Part shown: positions 16,771 through 45,350 of the stretch, piece after piece
Layout: each line of letters opens with the position of its first letter
How positions within the stretch are numbered: position 1 is the first letter of the stretch
Source of the DNA: a virus
DNA length: 64,000 nucleotides
Direction: 5' to 3' (one strand)
Virus record (IMG/VR): IMGVR_UViG_3300021406_000010
Coordinates: 64,001 to 128,000 of that record
Notes under the pieces: generated by a model
Database searches by the model: none
What the model was told of the DNA's origin: nothing
Seen by the model: only the letters and a program-made list of their open reading frames with translations
Position numbers and translations under genes: made by a program

Positions 16771-16917
16771 CAGTGCAGTTCGCTTCCCGTGTCCCCGCAA
16801 TCCGATCTGCACTTGTGCACTATCAGCCTGTCAGCGAGTATTTCCGATAGTAAGTTCTGCACTGGTATCTGCACTTCAGTGCACATCTTCTGCACTCACT
16901 CCCCCGGAAGTGCACTG
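16771..16917. repeat. TGCAC(T/A) iteron cluster A
   Basis: Seven TGCAC copies in about 115 bp, including ATCTGCACTTGTGCACTATC, at the 3' end of the primase-helicase gene. Confidence 0.8.
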
Positions 16918-21816: not shown

Positions 21817-21888
21817 GATGCTTCCTTCGGGTCGGGTGTTGCTGTCGTGCCGATGATAGCAAGAAAACCTGCTATCAGGCAACCAGGG

Positions 21889-23661
21889 CTAGTCGTCCCC
21901 GCCGGGGTCGACGTTCCAGGCCGGCTCGTTGCGACGGGGCTCCTCGTGCCGCCTGATGTCGTCCTCGTGGGAGGCGTAGAACTTGTCGGCCACCTCCTGC
22001 GCCACGGCGGACAGCCCGCCGATGGTGGCCGCGAACTCCTTCAGCTCCTCCGCCGGCGGATCGTTGACGGGTGCCTCCTCGACACGGGCCACGATGCCCG
22101 TGAAGTCCTCCGCGAGCCCCTCGAACAGGGCCGGGAGGCCGGCGAAGAATCCCATGATCGACGCGGCGTTGTCGAACTGGATCCCGCTGAGGACCTCGGA
22201 GACGTGGTCCTTCAGCTCCGTGAGCGCCGGTGATGGTGATGGTGCCATGTCGTGCTCCTCTGATGGTGACGGGGGCGGCGGGCGGTCACCGCCCGGTCCG
22301 TGCCCGGGGTCAGGCCGGGCCCTCCTGGACTCGTAGGTGACCTCCGGCCCGGGGTCATCCACTGGCGATGTTAGCAAGGAAAGCCTCATCCCGCGAACAA
22401 GCCGGAACAGCCGGCGCAGGCGGTGCTTCCACCTGCGGTACAGGCGCCCGACCAGCCGGACCAGCCGGAAGTCCCCGTTCCCGCCGGCCCGCCAGGTCAT
22501 CAGCTCCGGGTCCGGGCGCGGCGGCGAGGGCCGGAACCGGAGCCTCGGGCACGGGATGGCGCCCCGCCGGCGCCACGACCACCGCAGCCCGCGAGCGCCT
22601 CCCCGGGCGGCACCGCGAGCCGCCGTCCAGGGCAGCCTGCGCCACCGCACCCTCGCCGCCCCCCTCCTGGCCCAGTAGAGCGGGGACAGCGGGGGGACCC
22701 ACCCCAGGCCGCGCGGGCGCGGCGGGCGGCCGGGCATGCCACCCCGGCCGCCAGGCGGGCGGAACGCCGCCCCGGAGCGGGAGGCGCCCCGGGACCGGGC
22801 GCCGCCAGCCCGGGGCACGCCGCCTGGGCGGCGCCCGGTCCCGCCGGGATGGCGGCTCCCCCCGCCGGGGATGCCCCGGGACCGCCCGGCCGCCATCCCC
22901 GGGAGGCGGAATGACGACGGGCGGGACCCTCCGGGCATCCTGCCCCGCGCCGGGGCGCCCCAGCCGGGCACCCCGGAGAGGCGCGCCCCGCGAGCGGAAC
23001 CGCGCGAGGGACTCGCCCCGGCGCGGGGACGCGCGCCCCCCGGCCAGGGCAGGTGCATGCCCCACGGGCGCAGGCTTCCCGCGCGAAACGGGTGCGCACT
23101 CCCCGTGCGGAATGAGTGGCCGCCTCCTGCACGGGAGAGCGCCGCGCCCCCTGTGCGGAAGAAACGTGCACCCCCCGCACGGGAAGAGGCCGCACCCCCT
23201 GTGCGCACCCCCCTGTGCGCACCCCCGTGCGCGGCGCTACCCCCCGGGGGTAGCGCGCCCCCCGGGCCGCGCCGGCGCGAGCTGCCCGCACCCCCGGAGA
23301 ACCGCGCCGGCGCGCTCTGGGCGGCCATGCGCAGCCAGGGCACGCGCCGCGCGATGCGGGGCGCGCCGCTCATCAGCGCACGCGCCAGCGAAGCGCCCCC
23401 CTGGCGCACCCCCCGGGGGCCGCGCCGGCGCGGCATGCCGCCGCCTCGCCAGTTCCGGGGGTGCAGCCGGCGCAGTACCGCGCCGGCGCGGCGCAGCCTG
23501 CGCCGCACGTGCCGCAGGACGCGGGGCGACACCGCGACGCCGCCGCCCGCTGCCAGGCCAGCCCCCCAGCCGGCCAGCCGCGCGGTGCCTGCCGCCGCCA
23601 GGATGGCCAGGAAGACCACGATGGCGGCCCTCCTGGCCCGGACGGCGTCCCACTTACCCAC
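21889..23661 (-). CDS. Membrane-anchored Arg/Gly-rich protein with a plasmid TraA-like helical C-terminal domain
   Basis: N-terminal TM helices, low-complexity middle, C-terminal HEDDIRRHEEPRRNEPAWNV; internal starts at 22362 and 22248. Confidence 0.55.
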   Translation of the reverse strand: MGKWDAVRARRAAIVVFLAILAAAGTARLAGWGAGLAAGGGVAVSPRVLRHVRRRLRRAGAVLRRLHPRNWRGGGMPRRRGPRGVRQGGASLARALMSGAPRIARRVPWLRMAAQSAPARFSGGAGSSRRRGPGGALPPGGSAAHGGAHRGVRTGGAASSRAGGARFFRTGGAALSRAGGGHSFRTGSAHPFRAGSLRPWGMHLPWPGGARPRAGASPSRGSARGARLSGVPGWGAPARGRMPGGSRPSSFRLPGMAAGRSRGIPGGGSRHPGGTGRRPGGVPRAGGARSRGASRSGAAFRPPGGRGGMPGRPPRPRGLGWVPPLSPLYWARRGAARVRWRRLPWTAARGAARGGARGLRWSWRRRGAIPCPRLRFRPSPPRPDPELMTWRAGGNGDFRLVRLVGRLYRRWKHRLRRLFRLVRGMRLSLLTSPVDDPGPEVTYESRRARPDPGHGPGGDRPPPPSPSEEHDMAPSPSPALTELKDHVSEVLSGIQFDNAASIMGFFAGLPALFEGLAEDFTGIVARVEEAPVNDPPAEELKEFAATIGGLSAVAQEVADKFYASHEDDIRRHEEPRRNEPAWNVDPGGDD

Positions 23662-24769
23662 GAGCGCCCGCTCCTCCCGGGAGCTGGCCGGCCGGGGCGG
23701 CGATCAGCCCTGGCTGGCGTCCTGCCCTGGCCAGCCGGGGAGTGGCCCGGCGCTCTTCCAGCAGCGTCCGCGCGACGCGGCGCCGGTCCCTCCCCGTCGG
23801 GTCCAGCTCCCGGGACAGCTGGTTGATGGACGGCAGCCTGGATTCGGGCAGCCCGGCCAGGCGCTGCCGGGCCCCCTCAATGACCTCCTCCGCAAGGGCG
23901 GGAGCAGTCATGGACGGCACGGCGTGCAGGGTCGCGGAGCCGCGCACGACCTGGGGGTGCACAGGCGGCGCGCTCTCTTCCTGCACAGGGGGTGCGCCGT
24001 CCCCGTGCACAGGGAGTGCGCTCTCCTTGGCGCGGGGGGTGCGAACGGGGGGTGCGGCCTCCTCCTGCGCGGGGTGCACAGGGGGTGCGCCATCGGGCAG
24101 CGCGGGGGGTGCGGCGCTCGCCTGCACAGGGGGTGCGGGGATCTCGCGCACGGGAGGCGCGCTGTGCACCGTGCGCAGGGCGCGCGCACGGCCGGCGCGG
24201 CGCTCGTCGACCCAGGCGATCGCGCGGGCGGGGCTGCTCTCCCCGACCCAGGCGGCATGGGAGGTAGCGCGCAGCGAGAGCAGCGGGTGCCACATCCAGC
24301 GCGCCGGGCCAAGCCGCACGGCGTGCTCCTCGACCAGGCCGAGCTCCATCAGGCGGTCGCGGCTGACACGCCGGGAGTGGATGCCCCATAGCCAGGGGGA
24401 TAGGGCGCTCATCATGAGCATCCCGACCGCCATCACGGTCGGGCGCCAGTGCACGGCGGCGAAGTGGCTGTAGTTCATTGCGCCTATGACCAGGCCGAAC
24501 GCGTAGCTGGCCAGCCGCAGCCGCATCGAGGAGTCGTTCTTCATCTGCGCCGCGTGGGCGTGAAAGGCCAGGTAGACGGCGATGGACTCCAGGGCCAGGG
24601 CGACGAGGACCTGGCCCCCGACCGGCCAGGGCACGTGCTGGCGCAGGTAGGCGAGCTGCCCGATGAACGCCGTGGCGTTCACCAGCACGACGGGAACGGC
24701 GGCGGTGACGGCCAGCGCGCGGCTGCCAGCGGGCGCGGCCGGGCGATCCGCCAGTCCGGTAGGTGTCAC
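23654..24769 (-). CDS. Spd/DUF2637-like multi-pass membrane protein of actinomycete plasmids/AICEs
   Basis: Four TM helices, APPV repeats, C-terminal HTH-like PSINQLSREL. Confidence 0.6.
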   Translation of the reverse strand: MTPTGLADRPAAPAGSRALAVTAAVPVVLVNATAFIGQLAYLRQHVPWPVGGQVLVALALESIAVYLAFHAHAAQMKNDSSMRLRLASYAFGLVIGAMNYSHFAAVHWRPTVMAVGMLMMSALSPWLWGIHSRRVSRDRLMELGLVEEHAVRLGPARWMWHPLLSLRATSHAAWVGESSPARAIAWVDERRAGRARALRTVHSAPPVREIPAPPVQASAAPPALPDGAPPVHPAQEEAAPPVRTPRAKESALPVHGDGAPPVQEESAPPVHPQVVRGSATLHAVPSMTAPALAEEVIEGARQRLAGLPESRLPSINQLSRELDPTGRDRRRVARTLLEERRATPRLARAGRQPGLIAAPAGQLPGGAGARG

Positions 24770-24902
24770 GGGGAGCCTCCTCGGGGGAGCGGTAAGTTGC
24801 CCTACAATACCAAGAAAGCCTGTATTCGGTACACTGGCCCTGGGGGGCCGTGGGTGACGGCAGGGTCACACGTCACACTTTTCGCCCCCTGGCCTGCGGA
24901 AA

Positions 24903-24975
24903 CGTGAAGTGTGACCCTCGCGGGGTGTGATCCTGGCATGGCAAGGATCATTGCCCGCGAGGGTCACACTTCACG
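24903..24975. promoter_or_regulatory. Perfect 22-bp inverted repeat within TCACAC repeats, between divergent transfer genes
   Basis: CGTGAAGTGTGACCCTCGCGGG (24903-24924) and its reverse complement (24954-24975). Confidence 0.8.
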
Positions 24976-25025
24976 GCCCGCAACTCACACTCCGCTGGCA
25001 AGGAAAGCTAACATTGGAACTCGTG

Positions 25026-27086
25026 ATGGATCACATGGATCACAGTGCGCGCGTGCGGGTCGTCACCTCCCGCGCGGACCCGGGCGCGGGACAGCCCGTC
25101 GCGGCAATGACGCCGCCCGGCGCCGCGCCGCCGCACAGGGCGAGGGCATGGGCGCACGCGGCCGAGACCGCCTTCGCCGCCGCGCTGGCCGTCACCGCCG
25201 CCACGGTCATCGCGCCGCGCGCCGGGGCCCCCGGCTGGGCGGTCCCGCTGGTCTCCGAGCTGACCGGTCTCGTCATCGCGGTCATCGCGCGCAGCCAGCG
25301 GCGCAGCGCGCTGGCAGGCTGCTGCGCCGCGATGGGAACGTTCCTCGCCACGTGGGGAGGTCTGGCCGGAGCCGACCCGTGGCGGTCCCCGCTGCTGATC
25401 GCCTGGCTGGCCGGGATGGCGGTCCTGGTGCCCGCCGTCGCCAGCGTCGCCCGCCGCCGGGACCGCGACCCGGAGCCGGCCATCACGCCGCCCACCCCGG
25501 AGGACGAGCACGACGCCGAGATGCGCAAGTTCGAAGCCATGCTCGCCGACCACGGGTGCGAGGTCCGGGTGCTCACCCTGTCCGAGGGACGGGCAGGGCG
25601 GGTGCTGCAGCTGGAGCTGCCCCTGTCGGGGAAGGTGACCCTGGGCCACCTGGAGTCGATCGCCGTCAACATCGGCGTCAGCCTGCGGCTGCGCCACGGG
25701 GCGGTCGAGTTCGCGGCGGGCGCCCACTCCGGCCTGGTGACCATGAGGCTCCGGGAGCGCAACGTCCTCGCCGAGGTCCCCGTGCTGACGCCCGAGCTGC
25801 GGGCCAGGACGGTGAACAGGCCCTTCGCCGTCGGCATCAGGGAGGACGGCCCGCCGCACTGCATCACGGTGCGGGAGCTGAACTGGCTCGTCGTCGGGAC
25901 CCTGGGGGCAGGCAAGTCGACGTTCCTCAACACGGTCATCCTCCAGCTGGCGTCCTGCCCGGACGCGGTCCTGTGGGGCATCGACCTGAAGGGCGGCCGG
26001 ACGATGAGGGCCTGGCTGCAGGCGTGGGCCGAGGGGAAGGCCCCCTTCCCGGCGCTCGACTGGATCGCCACCACCCGGGCGGAGGCGAACCTCATGACCA
26101 TCGCCTTCGAAGCAGTCTGCAACGCCCGGATGAACAGCGGCCGTGGCGGCAGCAAGATAGCCCCGAACCGCAACATGCCGCAGGTCGTGCTGTTCAACGA
26201 GGAGGCATCCTACCTGTACTCGACCGACCGGGGGACCCGCAAGGAGCTGATCATGGAGCTGGGCGAGGAGGAGGGCGCGAAGGCCACGTCGAACACGGAA
26301 TTCATCGCGCGGGCCAAGCGCACCAACCCGGGAACCCGGTCGGAGGCGGCGACCTACTTCTGGGCCACCCAGCGGGGGACCGCGTCGATGGGCGGCAGCG
26401 CCGACCTCAAGGCCCTCACCCGGGGCCGGGTCGCCCTCGGCGTGACCACTGAGGGCGAGCTGCAGCACGTCATCCCGGGAGTGCGGGCCGGCCGCAAGAC
26501 GCTGGTGGCGCTGGGCGCCCCCGGGGTGGGGATGACCGCCGTCGGCACCGACAGCAGCGGCCTGGTGAAGTTCTTCCCCACCGACCACGTCGCTGGACAG
26601 TGCAGCGAGAACGGCAACGACGGCTGCGTCCCCGCCTGTCCCATCTACGCGGCCAGCATCGAGGTCGGCCCGGTCCGCCCCCCGCTGGACGAGGTTACGG
26701 CCGCCGGGGTGGAGGAAGCGCTGGCCGCCGCCGGGCACCCGGGCGCGTACGCCCGCCGCTGGGACCGGGCCGCCGCGATCCTCGGCCCGATGGCCGCCGG
26801 CCGGAGCGAGTCGCCCGGGAGCGCGGACAGGGCGCGCGAGGTGGCCAGCCGGGCCCCGGAGCGGGTGCACCCGGCCAGGATCCGGGCCCGGAACATCCTC
26901 GCCTCCCGGGGGGTGGAAGGCGGGACCACCAAGTACCTGATGGACCGGATCAGGGACGAGGGCATCCCGCTGGTAGAGCGCGAGACCTTCCAGCGGTGGC
27001 TCGCCGCCGATGACGAGGCGGGCATCATCCACCACGCGAGGTTCAACCGGTGGGTGACCGGCCCGGCACCGGAGAAGAAGGACTAG
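25026..27086 (+). CDS. TraB/FtsK-SpoIIIE-like DNA translocase
   Basis: N-terminal TM helices, Walker A GTLGAGKS, WGIDLKGG, Walker B VVLFNEE, ATQRG, C-terminal wHTH. Confidence 0.85.
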   Translation: MDHMDHSARVRVVTSRADPGAGQPVAAMTPPGAAPPHRARAWAHAAETAFAAALAVTAATVIAPRAGAPGWAVPLVSELTGLVIAVIARSQRRSALAGCCAAMGTFLATWGGLAGADPWRSPLLIAWLAGMAVLVPAVASVARRRDRDPEPAITPPTPEDEHDAEMRKFEAMLADHGCEVRVLTLSEGRAGRVLQLELPLSGKVTLGHLESIAVNIGVSLRLRHGAVEFAAGAHSGLVTMRLRERNVLAEVPVLTPELRARTVNRPFAVGIREDGPPHCITVRELNWLVVGTLGAGKSTFLNTVILQLASCPDAVLWGIDLKGGRTMRAWLQAWAEGKAPFPALDWIATTRAEANLMTIAFEAVCNARMNSGRGGSKIAPNRNMPQVVLFNEEASYLYSTDRGTRKELIMELGEEEGAKATSNTEFIARAKRTNPGTRSEAATYFWATQRGTASMGGSADLKALTRGRVALGVTTEGELQHVIPGVRAGRKTLVALGAPGVGMTAVGTDSSGLVKFFPTDHVAGQCSENGNDGCVPACPIYAASIEVGPVRPPLDEVTAAGVEEALAAAGHPGAYARRWDRAAAILGPMAAGRSESPGSADRAREVASRAPERVHPARIRARNILASRGVEGGTTKYLMDRIRDEGIPLVERETFQRWLAADDEAGIIHHARFNRWVTGPAPEKKD

Positions 27087-27754
27087 GACGGCGGCGGGAC
27101 CGCCGCCGCGACGGCCCGGTCAACGTCATCCTCGAGGGGGCCGCGCTCTTCCTCCCCCGCCACCAGCTGGCCGGTCAGGTCATGGATGGCGGAAAGCCGC
27201 CGCAGGGTGTCGGCGTGCCGGCCCGCGATGGCCTCCAGGCGGCGCCCGGCGACCTCGCTGACCGCCGTGGCGCGGGCGGTCGCCTCGTCGGTCACCCTCT
27301 TCGCCTCCTCGCGGGCGCCGGCGAGCACCACGTCCGCCTGCTGCCGCGCCCCGGCCGTAAGGGAGTCCGCCTCCCGGGCGGCCTCCGTGACCGACTGGCG
27401 GCCCCGGGCGGTGGCGTCCGCGAGGATCTTCTCCGCGTCGGCGAGCGCGGCTGCCCGGTTGCCCTCGATCTCGGCCGCCGCTGTCCGCAGCACGTCCTCG
27501 ATCAGCTGCTGGCCCTGAGGGCTCTCCGCTCCCCGCAGGAGGGCTCCCCCCGCCTCCCTGACGGCCCTGGCGGCCCGCTCCTCGGCGGCCCGGACCCTTT
27601 CCAGCAGTGCCAGGATGACGCGGTCCACCTGGCCGGGATGATAGCCGTCGGGAACCCGGTCGAAGCGGCGCGGGTCGGGGGCGAGCGCGCCCGGCGGGGG
27701 AGCCGCCGGCTGGGGGCCTGTCCGGCCTTGCCTGGGAGCGGGGGGAGTGGCCAA
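27083..27754 (-). CDS. DivIVA-like coiled-coil protein
   Basis: FDRVPDGYHPGQVDRVI matches the DivIVA F...GY...VD motif; long Ala/Glu coiled coil. Confidence 0.65.
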   Translation of the reverse strand: MATPPAPRQGRTGPQPAAPPPGALAPDPRRFDRVPDGYHPGQVDRVILALLERVRAAEERAARAVREAGGALLRGAESPQGQQLIEDVLRTAAAEIEGNRAAALADAEKILADATARGRQSVTEAAREADSLTAGARQQADVVLAGAREEAKRVTDEATARATAVSEVAGRRLEAIAGRHADTLRRLSAIHDLTGQLVAGEEERGPLEDDVDRAVAAAVPPPS

Positions 27755-27767
27755 CGGGTCCTCCTGA

Positions 27768-27956
27768 TAACGGCCCGCTGTACGTCCCGGGCTCTATCGC
27801 CGGGACCGTCACCAGCGGCCCCGGGACGACGGGGCCGCGAGGGGCGGGGGTGCTGCACTGCACCCTACCGGGGAACACCAGGATCCGCTGGGCTTGCGTG
27901 AAGCAGGCAAGGACGGGACTGGCGGCGAGGGCCGCCGACGCCAGCTGGACGGCCAT
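27768..27956 (-). CDS. Small hypothetical protein whose credible coding region ends at a TTA codon
   Basis: TGATG overlap with the upstream gene; after TTA (27770-27768) the frame runs out of phase through the DivIVA-like gene. Confidence 0.4.
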
Positions 27957-44689: not shown

Positions 44690-45350
44690 GTGCAGCGAGT
44701 GCACGGGACCTGGCGTTAAGGCTCCCATTGAAAGCTAAAGAACGTAAAACATAACTACTACTACTATTTTTTAATTATTTAGTATTTGTATTTACGTATT
44801 TAAGTCTTAGGAGGAGCTACGCGGGGGTCGTCCCCTCCCCCCTTTGGATGGCTACGCGGGTCGGCCCCCTCCCCCTCTGCCCACTGGAGGGCTACGCGGT
44901 CGTCAGTGCACATCGAACGGGGCCAGTGCACATCGCCTCTTTTTCGATTCATGCTATTGGCCAGGTGCAGTGCACATCGCCAGTTTCGCCAGTGCAGATA
45001 GCGTTTTTCGATTCATGTACCTGAGCTGGTATTAGTGCACAAGTGCAGTTCGATTGGCCGTTTTGGGTTCCCTCACGCGAGGCCCCGGATGGTAGTGACT
45101 AATACGCTACTTACCGTGGTCAAGTCTCATGCTGGGTATGGCAAGCACGTTGCTAGCTATTGCAAGCAATTTGAGTCTCCCCCGGGGCGATGCGTTCGCC
45201 AGGCGCCAAAATGGCGATTTTATCTGCACTTGTGCACTATCCGCACTTCAGCAGAACTTTTCGAGCGTCAGTTCTGCACTTTCATCTGCACTGGAAGTGC
45301 ACTGGCCCTTTCCCGATGTGCACTGGCAAGCGCATGCCGTGGTCGTGCAG
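44690..45350. repeat. Putative replication origin: AT-rich tract, 3x GCTACGCGG, inverted TGCAC iteron blocks
   Basis: Very AT-rich 44725-44810; about a dozen TGCAC/TGCAG units in two opposed blocks; 2x TTTTTCGATTCATG. Confidence 0.75.

Follow-up and report, generated by a model that had tools for sequence, protein, structure and literature searches.

The TraB translocase and the Spd proteins make up the intramycelial plasmid-spreading apparatus, and Spd homologues of phages have been suggested to spread phage DNA (Thoma et al. 2015, PMC4447253). In the pSVH1 and pIJ101 systems TraB is a membrane-anchored hexameric FtsK-like pump whose C-terminal winged helix reads clt/TRS repeats; it assembles at the 8-bp TRS repeats (PMC4170104), and SpdB2, a four-helix pore-forming and DNA-binding protein, aids the passage of double-stranded DNA (dsDNA) across cross-walls (PMC4447253, PMC4170104). 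On plasmids traB is toxic when unregulated and is kept down by a repressor (PMC4447253), which in pSVH1 and pIJ101 acts at a divergent promoter. We analyzed a block of four genes at positions 21889–27754 of a 64,000-nt stretch of viral DNA, in the following called the window, which comprises bases 64001–128000 of the single 166,488-bp IMG/VR record IMGVR_UViG_3300021406_000010. The block encodes an FtsK/TraB-like ATPase, a multi-pass membrane protein, a membrane-anchored basic protein that we call the partner, and a DivIVA-like coiled-coil protein. The membrane anchor, motor fold and winged helix of TraB are predicted for the phage ATPase too, whereas a conserved GntR-type Kor gene is missing from the block and, in contrast to pIJ101, a partner domain is present.

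The Streptomyces plasmid pZL12 produces tailed virions as well, and its tra locus is needed for conjugal transfer (Zhong et al. 2010, J Bacteriol 192:3747, cited through PMC3583192). The genes pZL12-71 to pZL12-73, which we infer to be traA–C, resemble the phage block in comprising a homologous ATPase, a large upstream gene with the partner domain and an adjoining membrane-protein gene within a virion-making genome. pZL12 is a 90-kb plasmid-prophage, however, whereas the present genome is that of a 166-kb myovirus without integrase, ParA or ParB. Its tra genes are collinear and lack a DivIVA-like gene, while those of the phage are divergent and accompanied by one, and no similarity was detected between pZL12-73 and the phage membrane protein. 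Proteins homologous to those of the phage are also encoded on Streptomyces plasmids of 152–968 kb, as a trio in the order DUF2637–partner–translocase, and on a 16-kb Actinomadura plasmid, as partner and translocase (plasmids compared: NZ_CP054917, NZ_CP117710, pSSP121038 and pAGRA3207_2). The plasmid trios are collinear, some lying beside GntR/UTRA and WhiB genes, whereas the phage block is divergent.

Among phages, the same trio is found in the cultivable tailed Streptomyces phages of Hiyaavirus (Keanu gp91–94, Hiyaa, Galactica, Spocter), where it is annotated 'membrane protein ... FtsK-like DNA translocase'. Their genomes are about 82 kb long, their genes are collinear without a DivIVA-like gene, and the identity of the ATPases to that of the present phage is about 25%. 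Papers on Streptomyces phages mention FtsK-like genes in passing, without analysis (PMC11536984, PMC13587820, bioRxiv 10.1101/2024.02.16.580700). The temperate phages phiC31 and VWB have been reported to carry a Spd homologue only (PMC4447253); spread of naked phage DNA was already proposed for such homologues in 2015 (PMC4447253). New in the present case are the setting in a large, apparently virulent myovirus, the linkage to a DivIVA-like gene, an arrangement with divergent as well as convergent genes, and a triple site that is unique in the genome.

Frame analysis by GC content at third codon positions (GC3) indicated four real genes within 21889–27754. The ATPase gene is divergent from the membrane-protein and partner genes and convergent with the DivIVA-like gene. 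Our comparisons support the view that ATPase, membrane protein and partner are distant homologues of the trio found in pZL12 and at the tra loci of plasmids from Streptomyces and Actinomadura. On the plasmids the membrane protein was recognized in three loci (L047, L048, L011) and the partner immediately 5' of the translocase in four (L046–L049). An original prediction, made from the sequence alone, had described a myovirus carrying TraB-, Spd- and TraA-like genes next to a DivIVA-like gene. The gene layout and the two divergent genes for membrane proteins agree with it, both minus-strand genes coding for such proteins, and the family names hold to differing degrees as detailed below.

The ATPase is encoded on the plus strand by the open reading frame (ORF) 24927–27086, supported by GC3, with a probable start at ATG 25026; the 686-aa product from this start is identical to a database protein (P0001). 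It was described as an FtsK-like ATPase with a transmembrane anchor and a winged helix-turn-helix domain in the original prediction, and all three elements were recovered. The Pfam model FtsK_SpoIIIE (PF01580) matched right at its threshold (23.8–25.5 bits, cut-off 24), and phrog_31069 'FtsK/SpoIIIE-like' matched with 92.7 bits. An AlphaFold model calculated with 12 relatives as input (mean pLDDT 66.6, motor 70–88) had the FtsK motor as best Foldseek match (6t8b, 2iut, 2ius; E 4e-12 to 4e-11), followed by the coupling protein TcpA of pCW3 and then EccC, with HerA much weaker. Walker A (GAGKS, with G-x-G-K-S invariant), a Walker B Glu and a TQRGT motif are kept in the family alignment. The N-terminus shows four model helices at residues 36–147, each over a hydrophobic stretch; those at 123–141 and 45–63 are clearly hydrophobic (Kyte-Doolittle, KD, 2.3 and 1.68), the other two weakly so. 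The last 97 residues, when modelled alone, gave a helix-helix-helix-hairpin fold (H-H-H-strand-strand) with a core pLDDT of about 95, which matched the winged helices of Fur, IclR and MarR at Foldseek probabilities of 0.98–1.0 and FtsK gamma (2ve8) at 0.91; Z-alpha was also matched, and the domain being small, all of these matches had E >0.01. A single motor domain is combined with membrane helices and a winged helix in this protein. We rejected a type VII secretion EccC-like ATPase, since the matches to EccC concern the common motor only and one motor domain with a winged helix is present here, as well as a HerA or packaging ATPase, the fold matches to which are far weaker than those to the FtsK motor.

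A cluster of one His and three Cys (DH..G.C ... C.P.C) is located at residues ~521–538 between motor and winged helix and is invariant in 12 of 12 clade members. Metal binding by this cluster is possible; we know of no such site in TraB or FtsK.

The only NCBIfam match of the ATPase is plasmid_TraB (NF041214, E 2.4e-7), which runs across membrane region and motor and covers model positions 8–358. When a profile of the family was searched against 1.8 billion representative proteins, 4,348 proteins were found at E <=1e-3 and 326 at E <=1e-30, mostly 600–850 aa long and aligned from the membrane region on. In a sample of 59 family members TraB was matched by 38 (best E 1e-30), EccCa by 25 and FtsK by six. 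The hidden Markov model (HMM) of the family matched plasmid translocases at E 1e-58 to 1e-40, Keanu gp94 at 1e-40 and pZL12-71 at 2e-23; blastp of the ATPase against pZL12-71 gave E 3e-12. We also placed the motor domain among plasmid TraB-type and chromosomal FtsK proteins in a quick maximum likelihood tree of 33 sequences, which includes a single chromosomal FtsK, several long branches and some IMG/VR contigs that are possibly plasmids. Eight phages with genomes of ~160 kb form one clade (SH-aLRT 99) that is nested within a clade of 19 viral-contig rows (support 94). Plasmid proteins and pZL12 are sister to the viral clade, while pIJ101 Tra and E. coli FtsK fall outside.

The membrane protein (371 aa; 23654–24769, minus strand, GTG start at 24769, supported by GC3) consists of an N-terminal membrane domain, a linker of APPV repeats and a short C-terminal tail resembling a helix-turn-helix. 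It matched the Keanu gp91 'membrane protein' in blastp (E 2.5e-15), and tblastn returned 57 plasmid records, 54 of them from Streptomyces and two annotated as DUF2637. An HMM built from the clade matched plasmid proteins at E 1e-46 (L047), 5.5e-42 (L011) and 1.5e-30 (L048), Keanu gp91 at 2e-85 and five more viral contigs. Keanu gp91 in turn matched the Pfam model DUF2637 (PF10935) at E 0.0012. In the ESM Atlas the feature score of the 371-aa protein was 0.93 to DUF2637 clusters and 0.90 to SpdB clusters.

The partner (590 aa; 21889–23661, minus strand, GC3 0.89) is a membrane-anchored, very basic protein with an N-terminal transmembrane helix, a low-complexity stretch of ~400 aa rich in R, G and P, and a conserved C-terminal domain of ~110 aa, encoded at about 21889–22260 and ending in the motif DIxRHExPRxxExxWN. 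The middle of the gene is so GC-rich that several frames stay open. We accepted the long reading because its frame is open in nine of nine relatives, L004 has a similar protein of 614 aa, and the homologues from plasmids and Keanu are built in the same way. The succession of transmembrane helix, basic stretch and C-terminal domain recurs in Keanu gp93, pZL12-72 and the plasmid proteins L009_663 and L010_609. By hhalign the C-terminal domain matched pZL12-72 with a probability of 96.6% (E 6e-10), and the partner HMM matched plasmid proteins at E 4e-21 to 4e-9, on four plasmids (L046–L049) in the gene immediately 5' of the translocase. The name 'TraA-like' used in the original prediction fits only in the loose sense of the pZL12/SCP2 nomenclature.

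In bacterial genomes each of 20 loci (L051–L070) had the partner domain immediately 5' of the ATPase gene, and about half of these loci encode it as a standalone protein of ~110–160 aa; standalone proteins of 113–141 aa were found in the Atlas and in L051–L064. Those of the loci that are named to family or genus come from the hypha-forming actinomycetes Streptosporangiaceae, Micromonospora, Polymorphospora, Kribbella, Streptosporangium, Thermobifida and Nocardiopsis. The previously unnamed domain constantly accompanies this translocase subfamily, whether in phages, on plasmids or on chromosomes, and is a candidate for a new family linked to the dsDNA translocases of actinomycetes. A complete DUF2637–partner–translocase trio is present on the chromosome of Thermobifida cellulosilytica (L065, 4556–9608), where the first protein passes the Pfam cut-off for DUF2637. 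This trio adjoins genes for an XRE regulator and a P450 as well as a Cas1 gene, and no phage or plasmid genes were found nearby in the 17 kb examined.

The fourth gene (27083–27754, minus strand) encodes a DivIVA-like coiled-coil protein of 223 aa. Its stop codon and the one ending the ATPase gene share a 4-nt overlap, as is also the case in L003 and L004. The Pfam model DivIVA (PF05103) matched at profile positions 9–113 of 131 with 27.4 bits (E 3.7e-6), short of the cut-off of 28; NCBIfam matches to Wag31 and Scy were weak, and among relatives the Pfam model matched L001 and L004 weakly and L003 not at all. A motif of the lipid-binding domain, F..V..GY...QVD (F-x-x-x-x-x-GY-x-x-x-[EQ]-V-[DM]), stands at the N-terminus in four of four clade members and is followed by the coiled coil, the central part of which matches coiled-coil stalk proteins. 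An attempt to establish DivIVA identity via solved structures failed, the best match to a DivIVA N-domain in the PDB (7o39) reaching only E 0.18. The predicted convergent coiled coil is present with its motif, but the profile and structure comparisons fall short of DivIVA. The gene occupies this position in all ~160-kb relatives with a stretch extending past the ATPase gene, and no homologue was detected in 50,697 deposited phage records.

In nine phage assemblies of ~160 kb, taken from NCBI, JGI, Logan and IMG/VR, the four genes keep their order and orientation and are bounded by the exonuclease gene on one side and the Gp80/GH25 genes on the other. The assemblies are L001 (a metagenome-assembled genome at NCBI, 161 kb), L003 (JGI, 160 kb), L004/L015 (162 kb), L013 (165 kb), L014 and L016 (162 kb each), L018 and L017, the last of which agrees with the block order as far as its contig extends, the position of the DivIVA-like gene not being covered. 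ATPase identity among the ~160-kb phages is 38–48% and the catalytic motifs are retained. In more distant viral contigs and in Keanu, membrane protein, partner and ATPase are collinear and the DivIVA-like gene is absent. A megablast search with the block region gave no match among phage records. The block is an old, conserved part of the phage genome, neither a chimera nor a recent capture, because its order is kept in nine independent assemblies and the clade is monophyletic in the tree. The original prediction had considered the module domesticated, which is supported because it is syntenic in nine phage genomes and bears the phage's own promoter motif.

The genome is 100% complete according to CheckV; the ends of the record share a 144-bp overlap and the GC content is 71%. 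In addition to the tail sheath (60821–62443, minus strand) the window codes for a baseplate wedge, virion proteins, DNA polymerase, a PrimPol-D5 primase-helicase, a 5'-3' exonuclease, a GH25 lysin and an SNF2 helicase. The block is flanked by the PrimPol-D5 and exonuclease genes at one end and by the genes for the SNF2 and DEAD helicases at the opposite end. The closest known sheaths are those of the mycobacteriophages Phabba and Myrna. As sheath and baseplate genes are present and even the nearest sheaths are only ~30% identical, we assign the genome to a new large myovirus infecting a high-GC actinomycete, in line with the predicted myovirus. Neither tyrosine integrase, serine recombinase, ParB nor ParA was found in the whole 166-kb genome, which extends the earlier observation that the window lacks an integrase. 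The phage looks virulent by its gene content; a temperate or plasmid-prophage lifestyle as in pZL12 was rejected on the same grounds. Its host is presumed to be mycelial.

The original prediction had also pointed to copies of a phage promoter motif within the block, at 22370, 24806 and 24995. All three were recovered, as exact cores at 22374 and 24998 and as a copy with two mismatches at 24810–24820. The core GCAAGGAAAGC is present in 14 exact copies and in 20 copies with at most one mismatch in 166 kb, compared with ~0.04 exact copies expected by composition. From the 20 copies we derived the consensus ACAGCTTTCCTTGCTATAGT on the strand of the served gene. The start codon follows 5–7 nt past the motif in most copies, which suggests leaderless transcripts. 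The motif is common to the relatives L004, L013, L014 and L018. In the form TTAGCAAGGAAAGCTGTATT this clade-wide promoter-like motif has 20 copies at up to one mismatch (copies in the window include 33807, 38777 and 63239–63543); on the gene strand it reads as an extended -10-like TGCTATAGT.

Within the block, the copy with two mismatches (24803–24826, core 24810–24820, minus strand) faces the membrane-protein gene and may drive this gene and that of the partner; the GTG at 24769 comes after a 34-nt leader containing GAGGAGG. One exact core (24998–25008, plus strand) is located 17 nt 5' of the ATPase start and is followed by TAACAT, in inverted orientation compared to canonical promoters. The other (22374–22384, plus strand) lies inside the partner ORF; on the minus strand TAACAT comes directly after it and, 5 nt later, an in-frame GTG, from which the C-terminal domain of the partner might also be made as a separate product of ~155 aa. 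Both exact cores are without canonical flanks and are absent at these places in relatives, and promoter activity of the core at 22374 is uncertain because its flanks differ from the canonical motif. A variant of the motif at 21853–21882 starts the next gene.

Between the divergent genes we found a 14-bp site, GGGTCACAC(G/T)TCAC, in three copies at 24863–24876 (plus), 24904–24917 (minus) and 24961–24974 (plus) within an element spanning 24863–24975. Two of the sites form a palindrome with 35-nt arms (24903–24937 and 24941–24975). The 8-mer GGTCACAC occurs solely at these three sites in 166 kb. In relatives the same intergenic region contains inverted repeats of other sequence, several of them built on GTCACAGTCAC. 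The triplet is a candidate operator or clt-like loading site. In a genome-wide examination of 8-mer clusters as possible clt it was the only locus-specific one; clusters of GCACCCCC were rejected as coding repeats at chance frequency. Two other 8-mers form clusters with an iteron-like look: AGTGCAGA occurs four times in 84 bp (16806–16889) just 3' of the PrimPol-D5 gene, and AGTGCACA four times in 130 bp (44905–45034).

By analogy with the plasmid systems the four proteins could work together as follows. The ATPase would be a membrane-anchored pump of the TraB/FtsK kind, with the C-terminal winged helix selecting the DNA. The multi-pass DUF2637/SpdB-like protein and the basic partner would provide the channel and keep the DNA at the membrane. 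Placement of the complex at curved membrane, such as septa, cross-walls or hyphal tips, would fall to the DivIVA-like protein. Replicated phage genomes could then be pushed through cross-walls into adjacent hyphal compartments ahead of lysis, and a single adsorption event would lead to the infection of a stretch of mycelium. The 14-bp sites would serve as a clt-like loading site or as an operator restraining a toxic pump. Complex formation, localization, DNA substrate and direction of transport are presumed in this scheme. We consider it probable that the block encodes a membrane complex for dsDNA translocation, whatever the substrate. That this TraB-type pump moves phage dsDNA across cross-walls is the explanation we favor, a tentative suggestion to which we give somewhat less than an even chance. 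Doubtful, and better regarded as a working idea, is the full version, in which a virulent myovirus clade spreads naked dsDNA between compartments by means of the pump, of a phage clt formed by the 14-bp sites and of DivIVA-like positioning at cross-walls; this would amount to conjugation-like, virion-independent infection by a lytic phage. In the original prediction such transfer had tentatively been linked to a block of tail assembly by UUA decoding. This link found no support, and we dropped TTA gating of the tail genes, since the sheath and baseplate genes called here contain no TTA codon.

If transfer of phage DNA were true, a lytic phage would possess a second infection route that evades receptors, surface defenses and the neutralization of free virions. 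It would help to explain how infections progress and halt in multicellular Streptomyces colonies, and the boundary between phages and conjugative elements would be blurred from the phage side. The presence of the trio in cultivable Hiyaavirus phages opens the question of the pump to direct bench testing.

Several observations weigh against export of phage DNA by a TraB-type pump. The ATPase reaches only 29.6 bits with NF041214, the cut-off of which is 800, and the HMM of its family matched neither pIJ101 Tra nor E. coli FtsK. The predicted TraB likeness is supported by the sole NCBIfam match, and we class the ATPase as a distant TraB relative and not as an equivalog. In this phage alone the Walker B Asp, otherwise nearly invariant, is replaced by Glu (LFNEE compared to LI[VC]DE, pattern hhhhDE, in relatives); an insert of ~8 residues follows further on. 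For the 371-aa membrane protein no match to PF10935 was obtained at E <=1, the hhalign comparison with pIJ101 SpdB was not significant (probability 0.1%, E 0.51), and no significant similarity to pZL12-73 was found, the HMM remaining silent. Because of these results we call it DUF2637/SpdB-like and not a member; direct SpdB membership is not supported by the comparison with pIJ101 SpdB, and the link to the predicted Spd-like gene is indirect, through Keanu gp91, the plasmid homologues annotated as DUF2637 and the Atlas scores. The DivIVA assignment is borderline on the profile evidence. For the 14-bp sites, placed as they are between divergent promoters, an operator is the more ordinary reading. 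Neither WhiB nor SsgA was found in the whole phage genome. A virulent phage that lyses its compartment would have little time for DNA export.

The block might instead serve the take-over of the host, with pump and DivIVA-like protein acting on host septa or host DNA, by blocking or redirecting septation or sporulation or by clearing host DNA, and not on phage DNA. Host DivIVA, FtsK-like and WhiB-like proteins direct Streptomyces development and FtsK-like genes of phages have been read in this way (PMC13587820; bioRxiv 10.1101/2024.02.16.580700). The DivIVA-like gene is moreover specific to the clade and tightly linked to the ATPase gene. We nevertheless judge this explanation unlikely: the nearest named relatives of the ATPase are plasmid transfer proteins and not chromosomal FtsK, the partner and membrane-protein genes belong to plasmid tra loci, and a candidate recognition site unique in the phage genome adjoins the genes.

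Somewhat lower still is the chance we give to a role in replication, in which the block would tether phage DNA to the membrane while it replicates or as concatemers, or would separate or position genomes within one compartment before packaging. The location inside the replication gene region together with the promoter motif of that region fits such a role, which has been suggested for one FtsK-like gene of a phage (PMC11536984). However, the genome encodes no tyrosine recombinase, of the Xer type or otherwise, that could resolve dimers in the manner of FtsK, membrane helices and two dedicated membrane partners are hard to reconcile with a purely cytoplasmic task, and the homologous plasmid loci serve transfer.

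An exclusion device that bars or expels the DNA of conjugative plasmids or superinfecting phages using the same route appears improbable. The membrane location, the kinship to plasmid transfer proteins and the PHROGs class of phrog_31069 ('moron, auxiliary metabolic gene and host takeover') would suit it, but nothing speaks for it specifically, and exclusion genes are usually small, variable and lineage-specific, unlike a syntenic core of four genes at 38–48% identity. Finally, an assembly artefact, or a passenger cassette freshly taken from a plasmid and useless to the phage, could be suspected from the GC content, which climbs to 78% over 22–24 kb, and from the ATPase gene being one of few plus-strand genes amid a long minus-strand run, but is extremely unlikely in view of the synteny in nine independent assemblies, the monophyly of the ~160-kb phage ATPases and the phage's own promoter motif within the block; chimeric assembly and recent plasmid capture are ruled out by synteny and tree.

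In the GC-rich coding DNA of the block we noticed further features. The sole tRNA called by aragorn in 166 kb, an 89-nt tRNA-Arg(gcg) at 22745–22833 on the minus strand, lies inside the R/G-rich ORF and was probably called spuriously in this very GC-rich coding sequence. Two inverted arrays of a ~24-nt unit, at 23066–23230 and 23954–24161, are located in the two minus-strand genes and flank their junction. Their arms comprise 89 nt at 73% complementarity (I1) and 41 nt at 88% (I2), and D1 and D2 show the 24-nt spacing; one array codes for the APPV repeats of the 371-aa protein, the other for RTGGAA-like repeats. The arrays may represent an inverted duplication or a DNA element with a function.

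Next to the DivIVA-like gene lies a small gene on the minus strand (27768–27956, ATG at 27956), homologues of which encode 58–61 aa in L001, L003 and L004. Its in-frame TTA (27770–27768, codon 63) is positioned within 1–2 residues of the stop in the relatives, and past this codon the frame stays open for ~195 further codons across the DivIVA-like gene.

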